A DNA stretch of 64,000 bases from Patescibacteria group bacterium (GTDB lineage Bacteria > Patescibacteriota > Doudnabacteria > UBA920): the NCBI GenBank assembly GCA_036726225.1, contig DAIMCS010000001.1, positions 188,885-252,884 on the forward strand, read 5' to 3'. The number at the start of each line of letters is the position of its first letter. Within the stretch, counting starts at the first letter, position 1. Positions 4,536 to 64,000 of this stretch are shown here, piece by piece. The notes under the pieces are model-generated. The model had not been told where the DNA came from. It saw only the letters and a program-made list of their open reading frames with translations, and did not search any database. The position numbers and the translations under genes were made by a program.

Positions 4536-5102
4536 CTACATTCCTTTTACTCTGACCTTCTTGGTCTTGGCTTTGGCTGCTTTGGGTACAACAATTGTCA
4601 GAATTCCGTCTTTCAGGTCTGCTTCTATGTTTTCGCTGTCTATATCTATTGGGATAATTACCGAGCGGGAAAAATTTCCCCAGTAGCATTCCTGGTAAAA
4701 ATAATCGTCAGTCGTTACGCTTTCTTCCTTTCTGCGGCTGCCTTTTACGGTAAGCATATCGTTGGCAACCGTAATATCTATGTCTTCGGGCTTAACTCCC
4801 GCGATTGTAGATTTGATAATCACGTTATCCTTAGTCTGGTACATATCTATGTTAAGCTGGCCTTCAAAATCACTAAGCCATTCCTCGTTGCTTTCCTTAG
4901 CTGTCTGCCTTACTGGCTGGCTTTCCGCCTCTTCTACAATTTCCAAATCTTGATCCTGCTCTTCAACAACGTCCGGAGCAAGCTCTTCCGGTTCTAAATC
5001 CTGTTGGCTGACTTGTGAAACACTAACAGGCTGCGGAGCTTCGTCGGTAACGCTTCCCCCCATAATTTTTCCAAAAAATGATGCTCGTTCTTTCTTAGCC
5101 AT
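4536..5102 (-). CDS. Hsp20/alpha-crystallin family small heat-shock protein
   Basis: 188 aa; alpha-crystallin domain (DMYQTKDNVIIKSTIAGVKPEDIDITV...GILTIVVPK) with acidic N-terminal extension. Confidence 0.8.
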   Translation of the reverse strand: MAKKERASFFGKIMGGSVTDEAPQPVSVSQVSQQDLEPEELAPDVVEEQDQDLEIVEEAESQPVRQTAKESNEEWLSDFEGQLNIDMYQTKDNVIIKSTIAGVKPEDIDITVANDMLTVKGSRRKEESVTTDDYFYQECYWGNFSRSVIIPIDIDSENIEADLKDGILTIVVPKAAKAKTKKVRVKGM

Positions 5103-9211: not shown

Positions 9212-9307
9212 GTTTGATATATAGGTTCCTAGGGTTCCCAAAGATCAGGGATTTTTGGGACAAAAGAGCAGCGTCCAAAGCGAACGAAGTGAGGACGATT
9301 GACCCGT

Positions 9308-9397
9308 GGCGGAGAGGGAGGGATTCGAACCCTCGATGCCCTTGCGGACATAGCAGTTTTCGAGACTGCCCGATTCAACCACTCTCGCACCTCTCCG
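9308..9397 (-). tRNA. tRNA-Ser(CGA)
   Basis: rc sequence GGAGAGGTGCGAGAGTGG...CTCGAAA...long variable arm...GGTTCGAATCCCTCCCTCTCCGCCA; anticodon loop CTCGAAA. Confidence 0.85.
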
Positions 9398-9660
9398 CGT
9401 CGCAACTTGCTACGAGCCATCGGAATTAACTAAAGTTAATTCCTCAAACTCTCCGCAGTTGCTCCTTATCCCAAAAATCCGTGCTCGTCCAGACAAAGCC
9501 CTGGACTGCGCTCCTAATTTTTGGGAACCCTAAGTGGCTCCCCTTATTATAAATTAAAAACCGCCTATTCTCAATACGGAACTCTTGATAGATCACCCTA
9601 ATATATGTTATATTCAGCCAATCTAAATAGGGTACCAACCACACACAAGGGAGGAAAACA

Positions 9661-10509: not shown

Positions 10510-11205
10510 AACTGATAAATTTTGGCAAAAACTTAAACGGTGAATAGCGGAAAGGCCGTTTTGCAAAATGAGTTTTCGATGCTGCTGTGTAGCATAACCT
10601 TTGTGCTGTTTGAGATTGTAGATTGGATAAGTTTCATGCAACTTTTGCATTAAACTATCTCTATAAACTTTTGCGATAATTGATGCAGAGGCGATTGAAA
10701 GAATTTTATTGTCACCGTCTACAACTGCTTCTTGTTCAATTGTTAAGCCGGGAATTTTAAACTTGCCGTCAACAACTACCATGACTTTGTCATTCCCGCG
10801 AAAGCGGGAATCTTTTTTAAGATCCCCGATCGGGTCGGGGATGACATAAAAAGATAGCAGATTCTCAACGGCTTTTCTCATTGCAAGCAAGCTTGCGTTG
10901 TGAATATTTATTCTGTCAATCTCTTCAGGTGAAACTTCCGCAATGCTCCAGGCAATTGCATTCTCTTTTATAATTGGCGCTAATTCTTCTCTTTTTTCAG
11001 CCGAAAGCAGTTTGCTGTCCTTAATTCCACAAGACTTTATAACTTTATAACTTTCTACTTTTAACTTGTCGTTTGCATCCGATATAGGCAAAATCACCGC
11101 GGATGCGACGACAGGCCCGGCCAAACATCCCCTGCCGACTTCGTCACAGCCGATGATGTGGGAAAAACCTTGTGATATTTTTTTGTTTTCGTATTTGTTG
11201 TTCAT
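10507..11205 (-). CDS. rnhB: Ribonuclease HII with in-frame palindromic-element insertion
   Basis: 232 aa; GCDEVGRGCLAGPVV and HKGYATQQH motifs; 10789-10845 palindromic element encodes ...DPIGDLKKDSRFRGND... Confidence 0.85.
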   Translation of the reverse strand: MNNKYENKKISQGFSHIIGCDEVGRGCLAGPVVASAVILPISDANDKLKVESYKVIKSCGIKDSKLLSAEKREELAPIIKENAIAWSIAEVSPEEIDRINIHNASLLAMRKAVENLLSFYVIPDPIGDLKKDSRFRGNDKVMVVVDGKFKIPGLTIEQEAVVDGDNKILSIASASIIAKVYRDSLMQKLHETYPIYNLKQHKGYATQQHRKLILQNGLSAIHRLSFCQNLSV

Positions 11206-11402
11206 GTTTTTAGCTTCCCTCCCCCTTGCCTGCCTACCGCAGGCAGGTGGGGAGGGCTAGGGAGGGGGTAAGATCGACAATAATTTTCACCCTCCCCTAA
11301 CCCCTCCCATCAAGGGAGGGGAATCAGAATATTTTGTTCAATGTAAAACGACCTATGCTAACATACCGGTTCCACGAAGTAAAGTGGAAAACTCGAGAAA
11401 CA

Positions 11403-14957: not shown

Positions 14958-15073
14958 CTCCCAAAAATACTGATGAGCATTCACAAAGGTATTTTTGGGA
15001 AAGACGAGCGCCCGCGGAGAGCGAAAGTCCCGATTTTTAAATCGGGACGTGAGCTCGGAGCAAGGCGCGAGGA
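14958..15073 (+). ncRNA. Structured tRNA-leader element (copy A) immediately upstream of tRNA-Pro
   Basis: cccaaaaat-hairpin-atttttggg module, then GGAGAGCGAAAGTCCCGAT-loop-ATCGGGAC-GTGAGCTCGGA enclosed by outer stem gcgcc/ggcgc. Confidence 0.5.
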
Positions 15074-15147
15074 CGGGATGTAGTATACCGGTAGTACACA
15101 CGCTTCGGGTGCGTGGAGACTGGGTTCGATTCCCAGCATCCCGACCA
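15074..15147 (+). tRNA. tRNA-Pro(CGG)
   Basis: CGGGATG acceptor/CATCCCG, anticodon loop TTCGGGT, T-arm GGTTCGATTCC, encoded CCA. Confidence 0.8.
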
Positions 15148-16281: not shown

Positions 16282-16478
16282 GTCAGGCGAGTCGGGCGGG
16301 TATCCACTCCGACGTTCAACAAAGTTGAAGTCGGAGCCCCGACCGCTTGCGCGTCGGGGTTGAGCCTGCCTGCCAGCAGGCAGGCTACGAAGGCCAAAGA
16401 CACCAAAAAATTATACCATAAAAAACGCCCCTTATGATAGAATCATTAGGGGCCGATTTTTTGAGATTTTGACACTAT

Positions 16479-28511: not shown

Positions 28512-28711
28512 AATCACCCTTGATAAAAACTAAAAATTTGGCTATACTGGTTAGCTGTTATAATTAAAAAGTAATTCATTACTTTTTATCCCCGCGGAGG
28601 CGGGGATCCAAATAATAGATTCCGGATAAATTTTCTAACCTCATTTTTAACCTCTCTGTCCCTTCGGGACATCTCTCCATGAATTGGAGAGAATAATAAA
28701 GATTAAAATCT

Positions 28712-32916: not shown

Positions 32917-32918
32917 TC

Positions 32919-33008
32919 CGCCTGCCTGCGGTAGGCAGGGAAAATTTACATTGTTATTAAATTTATCCGGAATCTATTTAATTGGATTCCCGCCTTCGCG
33001 GGAATGAC
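32919..33008. repeat. Composite palindromic element (GTCATTCC...GGGAATGAC family) in pyrC-pyrD spacer
   Basis: gtcattccgcctgcctgcggtaggcagg...aaatttatccggaatcta...ggattcccgccttcgcgggaatgac. Confidence 0.7.
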
Positions 33009-33014
33009 AAAAGA

Positions 33015-34099: not shown

Positions 34100-34165
34100 T
34101 TATCCATTCCCGCGAAAGCGGGAATCTATTAACTGGATTCCCGCCTACGCGGGGATGGAATGGCT
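34100..34165. repeat. Composite palindromic element in pyrD-pyrF spacer
   Basis: ccattcccgcgaaagcgggaat...ggattcccgcctacgcggggatgg. Confidence 0.7.
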
Positions 34166-36808: not shown

Positions 36809-37123
36809 ATGAAAAAATTCCAAAGAAAAGTTGAAAACTTCATCTGCAGGCATTGCAAAACCAGCGTAAAAGGGGATGGCTACACCAACCATTGCCCCAA
36901 ATGCTTATGGAGCAGGCATGTAGATGTAAACCCGGGCGACCGACAGGAAAAATGCGGGGGGATGATGGAACCCGTGGGCCTGGAAATCAAAAAAACTTCT
37001 TACATTTTAACGCATAAATGCGAAAAGTGCGGAGCCGAAAGAAGGAACCATACAGTGGAAAGTGATAATATAGATGCACTTACAAAGCTGTCTGAAACTC
37101 TTGCAAAAAAGGCACTATTTTGA
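36809..37123 (+). CDS. RNHCP domain zinc-ribbon protein
   Basis: 104 aa; CRHC...GYTNHCPKCLWSRHVD..PGDR...CGG.M.P...HKCEKCG pattern. Confidence 0.6.
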   Translation: MKKFQRKVENFICRHCKTSVKGDGYTNHCPKCLWSRHVDVNPGDRQEKCGGMMEPVGLEIKKTSYILTHKCEKCGAERRNHTVESDNIDALTKLSETLAKKALF

Positions 37124-37280
37124 TATAGTATCCAGGCAAGTTATTCTCGGTCTGGCTTCAGTTACAATTTAAACTTGAGCAATGCTACAAAATAGCAGGT
37201 TTAAATTGAGAGGAACATTTTACGGAGCAGCTGAAATTTTGATGCAGTCAAAATTTAACGCGCGGAGAAAAGTGCGACGA

Positions 37281-37357
37281 GGACGATTAGCTCAGTTGGT
37301 TAGAGCGCCTCGTTTACACCGAGGAGGCCAAAGGTTCGAATCCTTTATCGTCCACCA
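37281..37357 (+). tRNA. tRNA-Val(TAC)
   Basis: GGACGATTAGCTCAGTTGGTTAGAGCG CCTCG TTTACAC CGAGG ... GGTTCGAATCC ... ATCGTCCACCA. Confidence 0.85.
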
Positions 37358-37504
37358 TGAACCATTCGCTCCGCTCAGGTTCATGGCACGCCATAAGCGT
37401 GACATGGAAAATAGAGCGAGTGTTCATGCCCTGACACCCGAACGAAGCGAGTGGTTCAGGGCACGGGTCAACCACCTCTCATTACGTTCAAGGTGCTGCC
37501 CCTT

Positions 37505-37685
37505 ATCCCAAAAATGCCTCCGGCATTTTCGGGAACCCTCAATGAAATCCAAACCGCAAAAACGAGTAGCGCAGCTCCGACGTTTCAGTCGGAGCGAGCA
37601 CGCGTTTTTGTGGAAGAGGAGTTCGTGATGGAGAGCGAGAATCCCGATATTAATCGGGATGAAAGCTCGGAAACACGAACGACTA
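37505..37685 (+). ncRNA. Structured tRNA-leader element (copy B) upstream of tRNA-Phe
   Basis: cccaaaaat hairpin, internal caaaaacg-hairpin-cgtttttg module, GGAGAGCGAGAATCCCGAT-ATTA-ATCGGGATGAAAGCTCGGA core, outer stem gttcgtg/cacgaac. Confidence 0.55.
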
Positions 37686-37760
37686 GCCTCGGTAGCTCAT
37701 TGGTAGAGCGCTGCCCTGAAGAGGCAGGCGTAGTCAGTTCGATTCTGACCCGAGGCACCA
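37686..37760 (+). tRNA. tRNA-Phe(GAA)
   Basis: GCCTCGGTAGCTCATTGGTAGAGCG CTGCC CTGAAGA GGCAG ... GTTCGATTC ... CCGAGGCACCA. Confidence 0.85.
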
Positions 37761-37837
37761 TCGGCCCATTTATCCTTACGGCTTACGTGTGCAAAAAAAT
37801 ATTTTGCCCACTTCAGCCTTCAGGATAATGTGCCTCT

Positions 37838-38016
37838 TTCCCAAAAATGCTAATAGCATTTTTGGGAACCCTCAATGAAATCCAAACCGCAAAAACGAGT
37901 AGCGCAGCTCCGACGTTTCAGTCGGAGCGAGCACGCGTTTTTGTGGAAGAGGAACAACTGCGGAGGGCGAGAGTCCCGATTGAAGATCGGGACGAAAGCC
38001 CGGAGCAAGTTGTGAC
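37838..38016 (+). ncRNA. Structured tRNA-leader element (copy C) upstream of tRNA-Gly; shares an identical approx. 85-nt segment with copy B
   Basis: ...GGAGGGCGAGAGTCCCGAT-TGAAG-ATCGGGACGAAAGCCCGGA core, outer stem acaact/agttgt. Confidence 0.55.
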
Positions 38017-38090
38017 GCGGCTATGGTTCAATGGTAGAACTTCTCCTTGCCATGGAGAGGATAGGGGTTCGATTCCCCTTAGCCGCTCCA
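38017..38090 (+). tRNA. tRNA-Gly(GCC)
   Basis: GCGGCTATGGTTCAATGGTAGAAC TCTCC TTGCCAT GGAGA ... GGTTCGATTCCCC TTAGCCGCTCCA. Confidence 0.85.
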
Positions 38091-38282
38091 AAAGAAAACG
38101 CCTCACCCCTTGTGGGTGGGGCGGTTTCTTTTTTAAGAAGGCACGAGGGGAATCGAACGGGTTGAAGTGAGGCCAGACCGCTTCAGCAGAAGCGGTAGCA
38201 GCCGAGCGATCGGGAATGCGAGCTGGCGCAGCATTCCCGCAACCCCGGGCTACGAGCGAGCCTGCAGGCGAGCGAGGACGAA

Positions 38283-38301
38283 ATTCCCCTTAGCCGCTCC
38301 A
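38283..38301 (+). other. 19-nt direct repeat of tRNA-Gly 3' end (att-like scar or tRNA fragment)
   Basis: attccccttagccgctcca identical to 38072-38090; preceded by a leader-like remnant (cgagcgatcgggaatgcgagc) and followed by a terminator hairpin. Confidence 0.6.
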
Positions 38302-38507
38302 AAGAAAAAACTATCACTTTATGTGGTAGTTTTTTCTTTGGTTAGGATAAGCTTGGGACCTTTTCCCTCGAGCGCAGCGAGACCCCGACCTTCTCGTCGG
38401 GGTTAGCCGATCCTTAAAACCCAAAAAGCAAAGTCGAAGGACCCACAAAAAGAGTTTGACTAAGGATGATTTTTTATATAAATTTAGCCAAAAGGAGGAG
38501 TTTACAA

Positions 38508-40884: not shown

Positions 40885-41053
40885 GCTCCCAAAAATGCAA
40901 TGCATTTTTGGGAAAGAGGGGCAGCATCCCAAACGAAGTGAGTCCCGACTTGTCGAGACGAACACAGTGCGGGATGAATGACCCGTGGAGGGGTTTTAGT
41001 TTGGCTATTGAATTAATAGTGCTTTTTGATTAAAATGTATTAGTTATACAAAT
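40885..41053 (+). ncRNA. Structured tRNA-leader element (variant D) upstream of tRNA-Cys
   Basis: gggctcccaaaaatgcaatgcatttttgggaaagagg...gaagtgagtcccgac...cgggatgaatgacccgtgg. Confidence 0.45.
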
Positions 41054-41130: not shown

Positions 41131-41204
41131 CGGGTCAATCGTCCTTCACTCATTCATTTTTGACTGAAGTCAAAAAATTCATTATGTTCAGGACGTTGCC
41201 CCTT

Positions 41205-41396
41205 CATCCCAAAAACGCGTGCTCTCCCGACAAAAGTCGGGATGCGCTCCACGTTTTTGGGAGGTCTATATAACAAATCCTCAGCTCAAAAAAGGGCTCT
41301 CAAAAATGCAATGCATTTTTGGGAAAGAGGAGTTCGTGACGCAGAGCGTAAATTCCGACGTTAGTCGGAATGCAAGCTCACAGGCACGAACGACGA
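41205..41396 (+). ncRNA. Structured tRNA-leader element (copy E, two cccaaaaa/tttttggg modules) upstream of tRNA-Leu(TAA)
   Basis: ...GCAGAGCGTAAATTCCGAC-GTTA-GTCGGAATGCAAGCTCACAGG core with compensatory changes in the hairpin relative to copies A-C; outer stem gttcgtg/cacgaac. Confidence 0.55.
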
Positions 41397-41483
41397 GCCT
41401 GGGTGGTGGAACTGGCATACACTACAGACTTAAGATCTGTCGCCCGCAAGGGATTGAGGGTTCGACTCCCTCCCCAGGCACCA
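41397..41483 (+). tRNA. tRNA-Leu(TAA)
   Basis: GCCTGGGTGGTGGAACTGG...ACAGA CTTAAGA TCTGT...long variable arm...GGTTCGACTCC...CCCAGGCACCA. Confidence 0.85.
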
Positions 41484-41846: not shown

Positions 41847-41867
41847 ATGTCCTAAAGCTTTACAAAA

Positions 41868-42035
41868 ACCATTTGACAAGCTAAAAGCTTTGTCGTAAAT
41901 TATGTGTACTATTAATTTTTGAAGGAGTTGGATAGAAAAAAAGACCCACACGACATCTACAACCAAAAACAAGCAAGTCAACTCAATGGCTCAGTTTGGC
42001 GTAAACAAATTCTTTAAGGGTTTGTTTTTTTATTT
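41868..42035 (+). promoter_or_regulatory. Conserved cis-element copy 1: promoter (TTGACA-17-TAAATT), conserved leader, intrinsic terminator upstream of GNAT gene
   Basis: TTGACA 41873-78, TAAATT 41896-901, aaggagTTG 41922-30, terminator aaacaaattctttaagggtttgtttttttat about 42003-42031; paralog at 42666-42832. Confidence 0.6.
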
Positions 42036-42574: not shown

Positions 42575-42665
42575 CCACCAAGGAAAAGAGTGTTTGGACA
42601 TCCACAAACACTCTTTCCTCCCATCCTGCTAAAAAACCTTCTCTGCTAATAAAATTTAAGGAAAA

Positions 42666-42832
42666 AATATTTGACAAACAATTAGCTTTACTGTAAATTA
42701 TGTTTAATATTAATTTTTTAAGGAGTTGGAAAGAATAGAACACTCGTCCCTTTTTAACCAAAACCGACAAAGTCAAGTCAATGGCTTAGTTCAACGTTAA
42801 CAAATTCCTAATGAGTTTGTTTTTTTATTATA
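42666..42832 (+). promoter_or_regulatory. Conserved cis-element copy 2 immediately upstream of hss (terminator ends about 25 nt before hss start codon)
   Basis: TTGACA 42671-76, TAAATT 42694-99, aaggagTTG 42720-28, short ORF 42726-42800, terminator aacaaattcctaatgagtttgtttttttat. Confidence 0.6.
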
Positions 42833-51523: not shown

Positions 51524-51600
51524 TGGTGGGCGTGCTAGGACTCGAACCTAGGACCCTCTTGGTATAAGCAAGATGCTCTAACCAACTGAGCTACACGCCC
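51524..51600 (-). tRNA. tRNA-Ile(TAT)
   Basis: rc GGGCGTGTAGCTCAGTTGGTTAGAGCA TCTTG CTTATAC CAAGA GGGTC CTAGGTTCGAGTCCTAG CACGCCCACCA; anticodon UAU. Confidence 0.7.
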
Positions 51601-53744: not shown

Positions 53745-54500
53745 ATGTTATACATCGTAGCCACCCCAATTGGAAACCTGGGAGACATTACTTTGCGGGC
53801 CATTGAAACTTTAAAGGCCTGCGCTTTTGTTATTGCTGAAAATCCGGGATACAGCAGAAGGTTGTTACAACATATAGACAGCCTTTCTTCCAATACCATT
53901 CCCGCGAAAGCGGGAATCCAGATGTCGATGTCTGGATCCCCGATCAGGTCGGGGATGGAAAACAAATTAGCCAATAAAGAGATAGTCCAATTTGCAGAAC
54001 ACAACGAACAGCAGGTTGTTAAAGATTTAACACGCCGATTGGGAAAAGCAGACGGGGCTTTAATTACCGACGCCGGCACTCCGGGAATTTCCGACCCGGG
54101 CTTTAGGCTAGTACGTGAATGCGTTAAAGAAAATATCCAGGTTATTCCCATCCCGGGAGCCAATGCTGCCACGGTCGCGCTTTCTGCCTCCGGACTTCCG
54201 ACTGACAAATTTTTATTTTTAGGCTTTTTGCAAAAAACCGCGGCCAAGACAGTGGAAGCGTTACAATCTGCAGCCGATGCAGAGGCAACTGCAATATTTT
54301 ACGAATCACCCGAAAGAATTTTTAAAACTTTGGGCTATATAAATAATGCTTTCCCTACGTCGCAGGTGGTAATTGGGCGCGAGCTTACTAAAATCCACGA
54401 AGAATTTATTCGCGGGACTCCGGACTCGGTGATGGCAGATTTAAAAAAACGAGCGTCTATAAAAGGCGAGCTCACTGTTCTGGTCAGTTTCAAATCCTAA
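53745..54500 (+). CDS. rsmI: 16S rRNA (cytidine1402-2'-O)-methyltransferase RsmI with in-frame palindromic-element insertion
   Basis: MLYIVATPIGNLGDITLRAIETL; insertion 53895-53957 encodes ...TIPAKAGIQMSMSGSPIRSGMEN... Confidence 0.8.
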   Translation: MLYIVATPIGNLGDITLRAIETLKACAFVIAENPGYSRRLLQHIDSLSSNTIPAKAGIQMSMSGSPIRSGMENKLANKEIVQFAEHNEQQVVKDLTRRLGKADGALITDAGTPGISDPGFRLVRECVKENIQVIPIPGANAATVALSASGLPTDKFLFLGFLQKTAAKTVEALQSAADAEATAIFYESPERIFKTLGYINNAFPTSQVVIGRELTKIHEEFIRGTPDSVMADLKKRASIKGELTVLVSFKS

Positions 54501-55970: not shown

Positions 55971-57143
55971 CTATTTGATTTTTAAAAATCTTTTACCCAA
56001 ACGAAACAAATCGCCGGAAGCAATTTTTACACGGGCATTCTCATCGGTAATTTTTTGCTGATTATGGTTGACCGCGCCTTCTTTAATTTTCCGCCTGGCT
56101 TCCGATTTAGACGAAGCCAGCTTGCCTTCAACTAAAATATCCAGCAAAATATATTCGCCGTCTTTCTTGCTTAAAACCACATCCGGCTCTATTTCTGAAG
56201 ATGAATTTTTCCCAAATTTTTTCCCAAAATTTTCTTTAGCTTGGGCTGCTATTTTGCCGCCATAATACAGCTCTGTAATTTTTTGGGCCAAAACTAATTT
56301 TTGGTCGCGTGGGTTTGCGTTCGAACGCAATATGCCGTCTATTTCCCCGAGTGGCACGCGGGTAGCCAAAATAAAATACTTTTTTATTAAGTCATCGCTA
56401 ATGGACATAACCTTGCCAAACATATCGTTGGGCTCATCTGTCACATTAATAACATTGCCCCAGGAAGAGGACATTTTTCGGCCGTCCGTGCCTTCTAAAA
56501 TCCCCATCATCAAAATATCTTGGGGTTCTTGGTTGTACAGGGGTTGTATGCGCCTGCCGGCCAAAAGATTAAACCTTTGGTCCGTACCGCCTAATTCTAA
56601 ATCAGCCTTAACAGCAACCGAATCGTAACCTTGAAGTAAAGGATACATAGCTTCGTGAAGCGATACCCTTTGCCCGGCCTTCATACGCCTGGCAATAATT
56701 TCACGTGATTCCATTTCATGCAGCCCAAACAGGTTAGCGAGCTTGGCGAGTTCAAAAAATCCTAACTTATTCAGCCATTTGGAATTATAATGAACCTCGG
56801 TCTTTTTCTTGTCCAAAATTTTGTAGGCCTGCTCAAAATATGTCTTCATATTTGCTTTAACTTCTGCTTCTGTAAGCATAGGACGCTCTGAATCTTTGTC
56901 TGAAGTATCACCCACAAGGCCTGTGGAGTCACCAACAATAAACACCGCCTGGTGACCGGCGTCCTGAAAAGCGCGCAATTTTAAAAGCAAAACCGCCCGG
57001 CCAATGTGGATGTTTTGGGAGGTGGGGTCTATGCCCAGTTTTACTCTAAGTTTCTTCTTTGAAACCAGCTGCCGCTCTAAATGATGGTAATCTATAACCT
57101 CTTCCACCCCGCGGCCCAAAAGTTCTGCAATAGGATTATTCAT
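55971..57143 (-). CDS. tyrS: Tyrosine--tRNA ligase
   Basis: 390 aa; class I; KMSSS motif; C-terminal S4 domain. Confidence 0.85.
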   Translation of the reverse strand: MNNPIAELLGRGVEEVIDYHHLERQLVSKKKLRVKLGIDPTSQNIHIGRAVLLLKLRAFQDAGHQAVFIVGDSTGLVGDTSDKDSERPMLTEAEVKANMKTYFEQAYKILDKKKTEVHYNSKWLNKLGFFELAKLANLFGLHEMESREIIARRMKAGQRVSLHEAMYPLLQGYDSVAVKADLELGGTDQRFNLLAGRRIQPLYNQEPQDILMMGILEGTDGRKMSSSWGNVINVTDEPNDMFGKVMSISDDLIKKYFILATRVPLGEIDGILRSNANPRDQKLVLAQKITELYYGGKIAAQAKENFGKKFGKNSSSEIEPDVVLSKKDGEYILLDILVEGKLASSKSEARRKIKEGAVNHNQQKITDENARVKIASGDLFRLGKRFLKIK

Positions 57144-59840: not shown

Positions 59841-61072
59841 TGTTTATTCTAATACTCCTCGCAACTCTAATACTAACCCCGGCCTATACGGTAAGGTTTA
59901 ACTTTTTTGGTATGCCCGCAAACTTACTTATGATGTGGGTGTTTTTAGTTTGGGTTGTCTTTTTTATTTGGTTAATGGTAAAAAATCAGCTATCACAATT
60001 TTTAGAGTCCGTTAAAAATTGTCATAGAAAAATTTTAGTTTTTACCGGATTATTTTTCCTGTCAGGATTAATTAGCCTCTTTGTAAACGGCTTTAGCATT
60101 GCAAAGTTTGGGCAATTCATTGTTTTGTTCCTGCAGCCGATTTTGTTATTTTTTATTGCCCGATATATTTTTGAGCTATCCCCACAAACCAAGACCCGTT
60201 TACTGTTTACTGTTTACTGTTTACTTGCCTTTGCCGGCTTATATGCGATTCTGCAATACCTAACCCTCATCGGCCTTCCGGAAATCTACTGGGGCAACGC
60301 CAACGAACCCAAACGCGCATTAAGCTTTTTTGCCCATCCCAACTTTTACGCCCTTTGGTCTGCGCCCCTGCTTGCGCTTTTGATTCCCGATCTTTTTCAA
60401 AATCTTAAATCTTCAATCTTAAATCTTAAATCTTTTTTTTGGCTTTTAGGCGCTCTTGGCCTGCTGTTTTCTTTTTCCCGTGCAGGCTGGCTGGGACTAG
60501 GTGCGGCTATGGGTATTTACCTGCTAATTGCCGGCGACAAAAAAATTCGCAAACTTGCTCTTGCAGCTGTTATTGTTATAGTTATTGTTATAGTCTCAAT
60601 TCCGAACTTGCGATGGCGCTTTGTTTTACCTTTCTATGGTGAAAAATCAGCCGTCTCCAGATTAAGTTTATGGAATACGGGAGCTAAAGCTATAAAAGAA
60701 TCGCCCATTTTAGGTTTGGGATTAACCGGATTTAACAACAACTGGCAACGGCTCAATACCGACCCCAACCTGGACACCCACAACTTCCCGCATAATATAT
60801 TTTTAAATTTTTGGGTGGAGACCGGACTTCTGGGCTTAATTAGCTTTTTAGGATTAGCCTCGGTTTTAATTTATCGCGGCCTGCGTCGCTCTGTCATCCC
60901 GGACTCCGATCCGGGATCCAGAATTTTAGATTCTCGCTTTCGCGGGAATGACACTATCAAGTTAAGCGTCGCCCTTTTCCTCATCTGCTTAATTTTTCAA
61001 GGACTAATTGATAACCCTTATTTTAAAAACGATTTAGCCTTGGTGTTTTGGATGGTACTATCTTTGTTTTAA
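59840..61072 (+). CDS. O-antigen ligase-like (Wzy_C) membrane protein, second paralog, with in-frame palindromic-element insertion
   Basis: FSRAGWLGLGAAMG motif; insertion 60893-60952 encodes ...VIPDSDPGSRILDSRFRGNDTI... Confidence 0.65.
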   Translation: MFILILLATLILTPAYTVRFNFFGMPANLLMMWVFLVWVVFFIWLMVKNQLSQFLESVKNCHRKILVFTGLFFLSGLISLFVNGFSIAKFGQFIVLFLQPILLFFIARYIFELSPQTKTRLLFTVYCLLAFAGLYAILQYLTLIGLPEIYWGNANEPKRALSFFAHPNFYALWSAPLLALLIPDLFQNLKSSILNLKSFFWLLGALGLLFSFSRAGWLGLGAAMGIYLLIAGDKKIRKLALAAVIVIVIVIVSIPNLRWRFVLPFYGEKSAVSRLSLWNTGAKAIKESPILGLGLTGFNNNWQRLNTDPNLDTHNFPHNIFLNFWVETGLLGLISFLGLASVLIYRGLRRSVIPDSDPGSRILDSRFRGNDTIKLSVALFLICLIFQGLIDNPYFKNDLALVFWMVLSLF

Positions 61073-62198: not shown

Positions 62199-62903
62199 CT
62201 AATTCACCTTTGGCTGTTTTCTTATTATATAGTACTGCTGGGCTACGGCAAAGAGGGTGGTAACTATCCAGTAAAGCGGCAAACCGGCCGGCAGCTTCAT
62301 AGCAATAACCACGCTTATTACCGGCAAAACGTAAGTGGTTTGCAATTGCATAGCTCTCATTGTAGTGTCTTGGCCGGTAGTTTTGGGCATCATTAATTTC
62401 GATTGCCAAAATTGGGCAAGACCGGCAATTACGCCTAACACAATACTCGGTTTGCTTAGGTCCAAAAGATTTAAAAATCTAGGGTCTAAATTTGCCGGAT
62501 GCATAACAAAGTTATACAAACCGCTTAAATTATTGTTCAAAGCTTTGCTGAAAACCTGGTAGAGCGCAATTAAAATTGGCAGCTGGACGAGCAAGGGCAA
62601 ACACGAGGAAAGCGGATTAATTTTATGTTCCTTGTACAGTTCCATCATAGCTTTGGCCTGGGCTTCCTTGTCGTGCTTGTGTTTTTCGCGGACCTCATTT
62701 AATTTAGGCTGCAAATCGTTCATTGCCTTTTGGCTCTTAAGGCTTTTGTGGAAGCTTGGCGCCAACAATAAACGGATAAGCAAAGTGACAAGAATAATTA
62801 CAATGCCTATGTCGTGCCCGGGAATGACATTGTAAAAAAACACCAACAGGTTAAGTAGGGGGCGGTAAATAACTTCGTTGTACGCTAAGGTAAGAAAAGA
62901 CAT
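62199..62903 (-). CDS. yidC: Membrane protein insertase YidC (short form)
   Basis: 234 aa; Oxa1-family core. Confidence 0.85.
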   Translation of the reverse strand: MSFLTLAYNEVIYRPLLNLLVFFYNVIPGHDIGIVIILVTLLIRLLLAPSFHKSLKSQKAMNDLQPKLNEVREKHKHDKEAQAKAMMELYKEHKINPLSSCLPLLVQLPILIALYQVFSKALNNNLSGLYNFVMHPANLDPRFLNLLDLSKPSIVLGVIAGLAQFWQSKLMMPKTTGQDTTMRAMQLQTTYVLPVISVVIAMKLPAGLPLYWIVTTLFAVAQQYYIIRKQPKVN

Positions 62904-62910
62904 AAAGGGA

Positions 62911-63183
62911 TTAGGATTTAGGGACTAAATCTACGCTTGGCTCTGCCCAGGGATGACATTTGCTTAGTCTTTTTAGGCTTAAATACAGTCCTTTAATTAA
63001 ACCAAATTTTATTACAGCTTCTTTAGAATACTGGCTACAGGAAGGGTAATGGCGGCAGTAACCATAAGGAAAACGTGCCCGAAGCCAGCTGTGGTCAGGC
63101 GAAAGCAAAAATTGATAAACATTAATTAACATTACAATAATGTTTTTAGGGAGGTTAATTAATTGTTTAAAAAACTTTTTCAT
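62911..63183 (-). CDS. yidD: Membrane protein insertion efficiency factor YidD
   Basis: FPYGYCRHYPSCSQYSKEAVIKFG motif. Confidence 0.8.
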   Translation of the reverse strand: MKKFFKQLINLPKNIIVMLINVYQFLLSPDHSWLRARFPYGYCRHYPSCSQYSKEAVIKFGLIKGLYLSLKRLSKCHPWAEPSVDLVPKS

Positions 63184-63186
63184 AAA

Positions 63187-63513
63187 TTATTTTACTTTAC
63201 TGCAAAGCTCGGAAAATGCGTTTAAAATTTGTTTTTCCGGAGACGAGCTAATTTTTTGCCTGGCAATTATTGTATAGTCGCCGTTCTTAAACAAATTTAA
63301 ATTTTTCCTTACAAATTCCCGAACCAATCTTTTAAGCCGGTTTCTCTTGACCGCCGATTTAAAAATTTTGGTGGAAACCACTACGGTAAAACGTTTACCC
63401 TGAGGCCTGCTCAAAAATTTTATGCTGAAAAAAGGGTTAAAAAAAGCCCGCCCTTTTGCAAAGACTGCCTTCAGGTCCGTTTCCTTTGCAAGACGGTTTT
63501 TCTTATGGAGCAT
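63187..63513 (-). CDS. rnpA: Ribonuclease P protein component
   Basis: 108 aa basic; RNR motif region NRLKRLVREFVR. Confidence 0.8.
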   Translation of the reverse strand: MLHKKNRLAKETDLKAVFAKGRAFFNPFFSIKFLSRPQGKRFTVVVSTKIFKSAVKRNRLKRLVREFVRKNLNLFKNGDYTIIARQKISSSPEKQILNAFSELCSKVK

Positions 63514-63517
63514 AAAT

Positions 63518-63652
63518 TTAAACCGCTAGTCTCTTTCGCCCCTTAGCCCTGCGCCTGGCAATAACATTTCTGCCGGTTTTAGTCTGCATGCGTTTTAAAA
63601 ACCCGTGCCTGCGCGCTCTTCTTATTTTTTTTGGCTGATATGTCCTTTTCAT
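63518..63652 (-). CDS. rpmH: 50S ribosomal protein L34
   Basis: rc translation [44 protein letters not shown]; not in ORF track (<60 aa). Confidence 0.85.
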
Positions 63653-63828
63653 AAATACTCCGTTAATTCACAAATAGGGAACAAATTTAACCGATGCCAA
63701 ACTTATAGAAATTATCTATAAATCCGCGTCATCTAATTTAATCTGCGTATCTGTGATCGTTAAGTCTTGAATAATTATAAAGAAAATTGTCCCTTAGGTC
63801 AACCTTGCGCGCCCGGCAAAAACCAAAC

Positions 63829-63999
63829 TTAAACTTTCTCACACCTTTTCCACAGCATATTAACATCCTCATAAAATTCCCGCTTACCTTCGACCCTTTC
63901 AGCATCATTTACATGTTGATAACTTAACTGGTAGACTACAGAAAGCACGAAAAGACAAAAATCTTCCGTTACACGCTCGTTCCCTTTTTTGTAGTCTTC
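63829..63999 (-). CDS. Partial ORF (C-terminal 56 codons; continues beyond window end), hypothetical
   Basis: Open frame ...EDYKKGNERVTEDF...FYEDVNMLWKRCEKV*; no support beyond ORF. Confidence 0.25.
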   Translation of the reverse strand, partial: EDYKKGNERVTEDFCLFVLSVVYQLSYQHVNDAERVEGKREFYEDVNMLWKRCEKV

Positions 64000-64000
64000 G

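Follow-up and report, generated by a model that had tools for sequence, protein, structure and literature searches.

A conserved family of hairpin-rich tRNA leaders with a probable gene-conversion tract in a Patescibacteria bacterium

Analysis of a 64,000-nt stretch of a Patescibacteria genome (the window; positions 188,885 to 252,884 of contig DAIMCS010000001.1, assembly GCA_036726225.1) revealed a cluster of three tRNA genes on the + strand, tRNA-Val (UAC, 37281-37357), tRNA-Phe (GAA, 37686-37760) and tRNA-Gly (GCC, 38017-38090), in which both internal spacers carried a hairpin-rich leader module that ended next to the following tRNA. The window was a segment of bacterial chromosome with ftsK, gyrA, infB, tyrS and pbp1A, and with rnpA-rpmH-dnaA at its right edge. 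An RNHCP-domain protein was encoded just upstream of the cluster (36809-37123). Its closest named homologs belonged to Candidatus Doudnabacteria, Parcubacteria and Moranbacteria (best identity 72%), which indicated that the source organism was an uncultured member of the Patescibacteria (Candidate Phyla Radiation, CPR). The synteny of Val-Phe-Gly beside prs and the RNHCP gene was conserved in relatives. Upstream of tRNA-Val, a TG-extended promoter-like site (TTGCAA-17-TATAGT, 37101-37129, + strand) was the sole such site placed to drive the cluster, and its TTTTGATATAGTAT box was conserved in the relatives L078, L080, L162 and L167 (L numbers denote the other fetched loci, from relatives or from further contigs of the source genome, and W denotes copies in the window). 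The promoter scan found no promoter-like site in either tRNA-tRNA spacer, and an intrinsic terminator-like hairpin with a T-run on the + strand (38099-38134; called by the terminator scan at 38099-38123) closed the cluster. Because one promoter was found before Val, none in the spacers and a terminator after Gly, we infer that Val-Phe-Gly is a single operon, transcribed into one precursor that starts at the promoter (37101-37129) and stops at the terminator (38099-38134).

Inspection of the 220 nt in front of each tRNA in the window brought out the leader pattern. The full module consisted, in order, of AGGGYU, a hairpin (H1), 3-5 A residues, a rod (H2) and the tRNA, and leaders of this type, ~130-190 nt long, were present in about half of the tRNA genes. 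The arms of H1 were CCCAAAAAU and AUUUUUGGG, and H1 took either a short form or a long form with a conserved insert of AGCGCA, a variable GC hairpin and GAGCACG. H2 was 66-70 nt long (66-67 nt in the complete leaders of the window), began with GGAG, ended with CGAC and stopped 0-2 nt before position +1 of the tRNA. Its fold comprised four short helices, and the three purine loops that separated them, each with two-fold symmetry, were GA/GA, (C)GNA(G)/(C)GNA(G) and GAAA/GAAA; the central N.N of the GNA/GNA loop was mostly a homo-mismatch (G.G, A.A or C.C). In the predicted structure, these loops would form tandem sheared G.A-type pairs to give an almost continuous rod of ~27-30 stacked pairs. 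Complete leaders with both H1 and H2 preceded Ser-CGA, Pro-CGG, Phe, Gly and Leu-UAA, while the Val leader contained only a degenerate H2.

In the operon, all elements were on the + strand. The H2 of the Val leader (37212-37278) had no H1 in front and scored 66.1 bits with the covariance model, with a fold z-score of -1.3. The Val-Phe spacer contained a short H1 of the inverted, trailer-type orientation (H1a, 37507-37533), with an A.C mismatch on the sense strand, followed by a 60-nt rod hairpin (H1b, 37554-37613; minimum free energy -36.2 kcal/mol, z -7.9). The arms of H1b were CCGCAAAAACG...CGUUUUUGUGG, and the family alignment placed the conserved AGCGCA and GAGCACG in internal loops below a GC-rich tip. 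The H2 of the Phe leader (GGAG...CGAC, 37618-37683; 71.1 bits, z -7.4) showed covariation and ended 2 nt before the tRNA. The Phe-Gly spacer had the same arrangement, with a short inverted-type H1 (H1a', 37840-37866), a rod hairpin identical to H1b (H1b', 37887-37946) and the H2 of the Gly leader (37951-38016; 85.9 bits, z -6.9), which abutted tRNA position +1. The whole leaders before Phe and Gly had fold z-scores of -7.6 and -8.4. Outside the operon, the tRNA-Ser leader (CGA, tRNA at 9307-9396) occupied 9399-9525 on the - strand, with the H1 rod at 9470-9525 and the H2 rod at 9399-9465. The other two complete leaders, both on the + strand, were that of tRNA-Pro (CGG, tRNA at 15074-15147), at 14960-15071 with H1 at 14960-14999 and H2 at 15005-15071, which had a compensatory C-G terminal pair, and that of tRNA-Leu (UAA, tRNA at 41397-41483), at 41299-41394 with H1 at 41299-41323 and H2 at 41329-41394. 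A further H1 (40888-40912, +) preceded tRNA-Cys by ~140 nt and also preceded the promoter-like site of that gene; when read on the minus strand, this H1 and the following ~90 nt resembled an orphan tRNA trailer module by inspection.

The original prediction for this region was that a segment of 85 nt occurs verbatim twice, in the leaders of tRNA-Phe and tRNA-Gly. Our results showed that the 85-mer was indeed present as two exact matches on the + strand, at 37536-37620 and 37869-37953, and that the copies preceded these two tRNAs; the first copy had been placed correctly, and the second lay 8-9 nt to the left of the 37877-37962 given for it. No match to the 85-mer appeared in 100 dinucleotide-preserving shuffles. 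Global alignment of the spacer ends showed that the perfect identity extended 5 nt further 5', to 90 nt (37531-37620 = 37864-37953, both + strand). The tract started at the 3' end of H1a, took in a linker, all of H1b and the AAGAGGA link, and stopped 3 nt into H2. Around it, a weaker similarity (187 aligned columns, ~82% identical) covered the whole leader up to each tRNA. The exact copies were 333 nt apart in adjacent spacers, which were both internal spacers of the operon. Both copies were present at 100% identity in two independent long contigs (L001 and L002). Shorter contigs of other assemblies stopped at the repeat, either exactly at a copy end (L003, L005) or within 6-16 nt of a copy (L004, L006). 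Since the independent long contigs agreed and the short contigs broke where they would at a true repeat, the repeat was not an assembly artefact; it is real and long enough to break assemblies.

H2 is conserved at the RNA level through compensatory changes. In an independent MAFFT alignment of 10 copies, compensatory changes were observed in 16/19 RNAalifold pairs. In alignment A3, which was fitted to the covariance model, 17/19 pairs changed on both sides among 12 distinct copies, although these copies came from 5 genomes and were related by recent copying, so that the covariation statistics were inflated by shared ancestry. In the model-fitted alignment, 94% of the H2 cells were paired, compared with 65% in shuffles and 30-48% when the partners were slid. 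The terminal pair 6-78, which joined GGAG to CGAC, was GC in 11 copies and CG in one (Pro). The H2 cells contained 9 G.U and 2 A.C, which favored the tRNA-sense RNA as the structured strand. Fold z-scores ranged from -4.5 to -7.4 in five of the six H2 rods of the window, and both H1 rods also folded far better than their shuffles. A resemblance of H2 to RNase P RNA was rejected: the strings concerned in the window copies (GAAAGUCC and CGGAGCAAGG, similar to parts of the M1 RNA of E. coli) were not conserved in the other copies, and Rfam gave no RNase P match.

The search with the covariance model gave significant H2 matches at 12 places, namely six in the window (Val, Phe, Gly, Leu-UAA, Pro and Ser), the Phe and Gly leaders of L078 and of L080, the Gly leader of L162 and the Phe leader of L167. 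In 12/12 copies H2 was on the tRNA strand, immediately 5' of the tRNA and 0-2 nt from position +1. With models R1 and R2, L082 and L163 matched alongside L080 (Phe, Gly) and L162 (Gly), respectively. The relatives that carried H2 were four metagenomic genomes, those with an RNHCP protein 66-72% identical to that of the window. No further significant H2 match was found in the window, in 41.6 kb of two further loci of the source genome that overlap the window and extend it, or across the 735 kb of ~84 related loci. In ~80 loci with 55-67% RNHCP identity, models R1 and R2 gave no match, and with filters off they gave none in L079, L083, L084 and L086. The module was patchy, since it was present before Gly only in L162 and before Phe in L167, and it was absent from L164 (72% RNHCP identity), L165, L079, L084 and L086. 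L079 and L165 had other hairpins beside tRNA 5' ends (in L079, with a CGUAG...CGGAG loop and a GCGACGU junction) that were not detectably of the same family. All ten H1-like elements of the window were located beside tRNAs; three other pattern matches were inside coding open reading frames (ORFs) and resembled chance hits. In Rfam, only tRNAs reached the gathering score in the window, and a search of 37100-38450 with E-values up to 10 gave nothing meaningful over H1 or H2. A scan of a genome collection in which the window's species was not included gave 71 matches to the pattern GGAGNGCGANAN{12,30}GNNAGCNCGGAGCA; inspection of their sequences and folds showed no H2 architecture in any of them, and the matches, mostly from high-GC genomes, were rejected as chance. 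The leader family is restricted to a narrow clade of the Patescibacteria. Literature searches found no prior description of such tRNA leaders, and the family of hairpin-rich pre-tRNA leaders is apparently lineage-specific and undescribed.

The distribution of differences between the two leaders pointed to recombination. The 90-nt tract contained no differences, compared with 9/31 and 25/66 in its flanks (~30-38% divergence), and such a run was obtained in 0/200,000 permutations of the differences, in agreement with the original prediction that passive ancestry does not explain the identity. The copying of the leader independently of the tRNA, also part of that prediction, was borne out by the H2 copies, whose similarity did not track tRNA orthology. 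Orthologous Phe H2 copies were only 37-47% identical, whereas identities of 78% were found between W_Phe and W_Leu-UAA, 81% between Phe and Gly of L078, 85% between Phe and Gly of L080, 76% between W_Val and its nearest relative L080_Gly, and 77% between W_Ser and L078_Phe. The exception was W_Gly and L078_Gly (79%), the only orthologous pair that was still close. By inspection, the H1b of the window appeared to be a mosaic, with arms like those of the H1b of L078_Gly (AAAAACGAGUAGCGCA...GAGCACGCGUUUUU) and a tip like that of the H1 of L078_Phe (GCUCCGAC...GUCGGAGC). The shared H1b thus looks like the product of recombination between the Phe and Gly leaders followed by homogenization, and the sequence comparisons support the reading of the 90-nt tract as a recent gene-conversion (or copy-replacement) tract between neighboring members of the leader family. 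With similar leaders in about half of the tRNA genes, RecA-dependent recombination would overwrite one copy with another and leave an identity of this kind; recA was called beside the window in the source genome.

H1 was also found in an inverted orientation. Together with its flanks, which were inverted too (UGCCYCUUU-CCC...GGG-AACCCU), it occurred in the Ser, Val, Phe and Cys trailers of the source genome only, for example at 9237-9259 (-) in the tRNA-Ser trailer and, as a long H1 whose inner part was the reverse complement of the AGCGCA...GAGCACG core, at 41208-41261 (+) in the tRNA-Cys trailer. By inspection and in small numbers, G.U pairs were found in forward H1 copies and A.C mismatches in 2/4 inverted copies, which is what DNA copies inverted from an RNA-selected forward element would look like. 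The tRNA 3' trailers themselves were modular (9260-9306 on the - strand, 37358-37505, 37761-37839 and 41131-41207), with the CCA end followed by CGGGUCAA (in Ser, Cys and Val), a variable hairpin, UGCCYCUUU and the inverted H1; after tRNA-Val, L078 retained CGGGUCAUUCAUUCCU only. A long-range bracket stem formed by the leader H1 and the inverted trailer H1 was possible around Ser and Phe in the source genome, and it was rejected because L078, L080, L162 and L167 had no inverted trailer copy.

These inverted copies raise the alternative that H1 and H2 are miniature palindromic DNA elements, similar to repetitive extragenic palindromic (REP) sequences or miniature inverted-repeat transposable elements, which are mobilized in trans by a transposase encoded elsewhere and prefer tRNA flanks; the hairpins would then be recognition structures in single-stranded DNA, and any effect on RNA would be incidental. 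The 9-11 nt inverted-repeat arms of H1, its occurrence in both orientations with the flanks inverted too, the presence or absence of modules at orthologous tRNAs of close relatives and their failure to track tRNA orthology would all fit such an element, and the transcribed Correia elements of Neisseria, which bind RNase III and are cleaved or protected, illustrate that mobility and an RNA effect can coexist (PMC2649163). We nevertheless consider this origin unlikely. All ten H1 and all six H2 copies of the window flanked tRNAs and none was found in the many other intergenic regions, the strand of H2 and its distance of 0-2 nt were constant although the tRNAs had unrelated 5' sequences, G.U pairs outnumbered A.C on the tRNA strand, and the loop sequences were conserved and purine-rich on one strand only. 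The inverted H1 was found in none of the four relatives. No transposase, integrase or RAYT domain (RAYT being the transposase that mobilizes REP repeats) was found among the genes called in ~84 kb of the source genome or in the window ORFs scanned. No target-site duplication was visible at the module borders, and orthologous spacers that lack the module (L162 Val-Phe, L164) could not be aligned with those that carry it. Of the "mobile or gene-conversion-prone cassette" proposed in the original prediction, gene conversion was upheld by the bounded tract, the non-orthologous H2 similarities and the mosaic H1b, whereas an autonomous mobile cassette was not, as no transposase or similar enzyme was found among the genes called in ~84 kb of the source genome, no target-site duplication was visible and no copy lay away from a tRNA. 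An assembly artefact, or an ancient tandem duplication that survives passively and without function, would account for exact copies only 333 nt apart in adjacent spacers. This explanation is barely credible, because the tRNAs and the proximal, unique parts of the spacers were not duplicated, the differences were extremely non-uniform along the alignment, both leaders were present at the orthologous loci of relatives, the compensatory changes showed selection on structure, and independent assemblies agreed. The repeat therefore did not belong to a single tandem segmental duplication. It lay within structured RNA leaders that form a broader family, are specific to one strand and are under selection, a point that the original prediction had missed.

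The most economical interpretation of the rods is that they act in cis as processing or stability determinants of the tRNA precursor. In the mechanism that we consider most likely, the rods would be transcribed inside the pre-tRNA and act in the Val-Phe-Gly precursor, where a dimeric endonuclease specific for double strands, such as RNase III, would enter at them; the rod length and the two-fold-symmetric loops appear suited to such an enzyme. The nuclease would separate the tRNAs and strip the helix located 2 nt from the RNase P site, after which RNase P would make the mature 5' end. The presence of rnpA indicated an RNase P of the protein-plus-RNA type, and hence a conventional enzyme would be expected. 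RNase III in particular is possible as the enzyme that cuts the rods, but doubtful. Several points weigh against this interpretation, in addition to the shared ancestry of the H2 copies. The Val H2 copy folded poorly (z -1.3). H1 occurred in both orientations in the source genome, as a DNA-level element would. The module is not essential, since L164 and other close relatives do without it. Moreover, the protein subunit of bacterial RNase P prefers a single-stranded leader, and the enzyme is not known to favor a helix that lies 2 nt from its cleavage site, so that the rods could as well inhibit or time processing as promote it. Taken together, a family of structured cis-acting leaders that is subject to gene conversion is a moderately probable account of the data.

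Other roles for the rods were also considered. H2 may be a pre-tRNA leader element of a new class with a dedicated partner, which would recruit and position a dimeric nuclease or recruit the reduced RNase P of these CPR bacteria. The RNase P RNAs of CPR bacteria are reported to have diverged, and many lack the UGG motif that binds the CCA end of tRNA (PMC8172020), so that the H2 rod could replace lost substrate contacts. Alternatively, H2 would be set free from the leader as a small RNA of high abundance and would titrate a protein in proportion to the tRNA output. We regard a dedicated partner of either kind as improbable. Slightly less probable still is a stable small RNA with a function in trans, in which RNase P would free H1-H2 or H2, for example to bind or titrate a dimeric protein through the GA loops, while the tRNA merely supplied a promoter and a 3' processing site. 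Such an RNA would explain why the loops GGAG/CGAC, CGNAG/CGNAG and GAAA/GAAA, with their N.N mostly homo-mismatched, were conserved beyond the need of helix stability, why the rod length was nearly constant (66-70 nt), why the fold energies were very stable and why the rod end coincided precisely with the RNase P site. However, the helix sequences varied freely among copies and thus contained no common guide or antisense sequence, no candidate partner protein was identified, and the module was absent from the close relatives L164 and L165. It is very unlikely that H1, with an A-tract, a GC-rich hairpin and a U-tract, is an attenuator or terminator, possibly bidirectional, that controls how much transcription continues into each tRNA. 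The order of A5, GC-rich stem and U5 in the long H1, its palindromic nature and its position between genes of one operon would suit this function, but the U-run was paired inside the stem and followed by GGG, the short H1 versions had only 3-4 G-C pairs, and the terminator scan called no H1 or H2 while it did call the terminator after tRNA-Gly. An attenuator would also leave H2 and its fixed distance from the tRNA unexplained. A leader peptide or a true ribosome-binding site was rejected, as no conserved start codon or ORF followed GGAG.

Several other features were observed in the window and in the related loci. The tRNA-Arg (CCU) leader (16282-16400, -) had no H1 or H2 and contained other GC-rich hairpins, GCCTGCCTGCTGGCAGGCAGGC and CCCCGACGCGCAAGCGGTCGGGG, that were related to the palindrome TTGCCTGCCTACCGCAGGCAGG at two intergenic sites (11226-11250 and 32918-32942). 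Palindromes of a second family, unrelated to the leader modules (CATTCCCGCGAAAGCGGGAATC and GATCCCCGATC..GGGGATG variants), were scattered in both orientations over the intergenic regions between protein genes, at sites that included 10791-10816, 28588-28623, 32985-33011, 34105-34160, 53897-53922 and 60927-60953; this family was REP-like or terminator-like in its behavior and, unlike H1 and H2, was not tied to tRNAs. Downstream of the operon, the last 18 nt of tRNA-Gly (TTCCCCTTAGCCGCTCCA, 38073-38090) recurred at 38284-38301, and each copy was followed by a terminator-like hairpin. The ~190 nt between the two copies held an inverted T-arm fragment (AGGGGAATCGAAC), and a degenerate copy (GGGGTTAGCCGATCC) was located near 38400. 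In L078 the 3' end of tRNA-Gly was likewise duplicated, with the two terminators swapped. From its sequence, the region 38135-38345 looks like a set of integration or excision scars at the tRNA-Gly 3' end. In L084 (~4975-5075) and L083 (~980-1078), the first 13 nt of tRNA-Val (GGGCGGTTAGCTC) were duplicated ~100 nt upstream of the intact tRNA-Val, with a structured insert (CCTCCTTCGCTAAAGCTAYGGAGGG...) between the duplicate and the gene, which may be the footprint of an element that entered the D-arm region. The tRNA-Phe of L167 (5738-~6800) and L165 (1611-~1915) contained a long intron-like insert after the anticodon stem and was missed by ARAGORN; the insert of L167 apparently held a 298-aa ORF. 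A LAGLIDADG-like ORF was located between tRNA-Val and tRNA-Phe in L164 (731-1477). These inserts and this ORF fit the group I introns reported in CPR tRNAs (PMC8172020). Two segments of ~170 nt in the window (41864-42034 and 42662-42829) were ~80% identical at a distance of 795-798 nt, and each had a TTGACA...TAAATT promoter-like box and an AAGGAG ribosome-binding site, which points to a tandem pair of small paralogs whose 5' regions are duplicated. At 51524-51600 (-), a tRNA-Ile with the anticodon UAU was encoded. This anticodon is an uncommon bacterial way to read AUA without the lysidine modification. The ARAGORN call of a tRNA-His (anticodon atg) at 56337-56424 (-) was inside the tyrS ORF (55971-57143), had no match to the Rfam tRNA model and is almost certainly a false positive. 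At its right end, ~62900-64000, the window ran into the yidC-yidD-rnpA-rpmH / dnaA-dnaN region (overlapping locus L168) and hence adjoined the probable replication origin.

The 5' leaders of bacterial tRNAs are usually regarded as short, unstructured and disposable. In contrast, the leaders described here, from an uncultured, ultra-small bacterium, had two conserved rods, one of which was no more than 2 nt from the RNase P site, and their modules were exchanged among tRNA loci. Should the rods prove to be processing signals, they would show how a reduced-genome lineage with limited RNases separates polycistronic tRNAs, and CPR RNase III and RNase P could be tested on them as defined substrates. 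The rod with symmetric GA loops is a candidate for a new RNA family in Rfam. The repeats are also a practical marker, as short-read assemblies break exactly at the leader loci.

Among known systems, the processing stems and spacers of rRNA/tRNA operons are RNase III sites and are homogenized by gene conversion between operon copies. The leaders resembled them in being structured, non-coding sequences beside stable-RNA genes within a single precursor, with long, nearly continuous double-stranded segments of a size suited to RNase III and with paralogous copies within one genome that were apparently kept alike by recombination. They differed in that H1 and H2 were local hairpins of the 5' leader, not a long-range stem that encloses the mature RNA (complementarity between the two flanks was possible only for the Ser and Phe units of the source genome), in that the flanked genes were different tRNAs instead of copies of one operon, and in that cleavage is here only a prediction. 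The Correia repeats of Neisseria (CREE, or NEMIS) form transcribed hairpins that bind RNase III and are cleaved or protected (PMC2649163). Similar to these repeats and to the REP and BIME families, the modules were small palindromic intergenic repeats that occurred in both orientations (for H1, in the source genome) and were present or absent among related genomes. However, CREE and REP sequences are dispersed over many intergenic regions, whereas H1 and H2 were found only beside tRNAs, with the strand and distance of H2 fixed; no target duplication or mobilizing enzyme was seen, and H2 had conserved loop motifs specific to one strand and compensatory changes. The archaeal bulge-helix-bulge is a two-fold pseudo-symmetric motif of pre-tRNA and pre-rRNA that is read by a dimeric endonuclease. 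The loops of H2 were likewise two-fold symmetric and part of a stable-RNA precursor, but they were symmetric 2x2, 3x3 and 4x4 loops instead of two 3-nt bulges 4 bp apart, and the host was a bacterium in which a splicing endonuclease was not identified. The symmetry and the lack of a 3-nt bulge also distinguished the H2 loops, with their predicted non-canonical pairs, from a K-turn or box C/D-like motif. STAB-SD elements are 5' stabilizers of Bacillus mRNAs with a Shine-Dalgarno-like sequence and no start codon. The leaders shared with them a conserved AAAGGAG in a non-coding context that lacks a usable start codon, identical to the ribosome-binding sites of this genome (for example, before the ATG at 38489), and GGAG was conserved in 9/12 H2 copies with no conserved start codon. 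Unlike in STAB-SD, the structure prediction joined GGAG to CGAC by G-C pairs and tandem G.A. GGAG was more likely to be part of a helix than a free site for 16S binding, since in the Pro copy it changed to CGAG together with its partner. The leader family thus fits none of the systems compared, for it has no enclosing stem, no dispersal and no bulges, and its Shine-Dalgarno-like GGAG appears to be paired.

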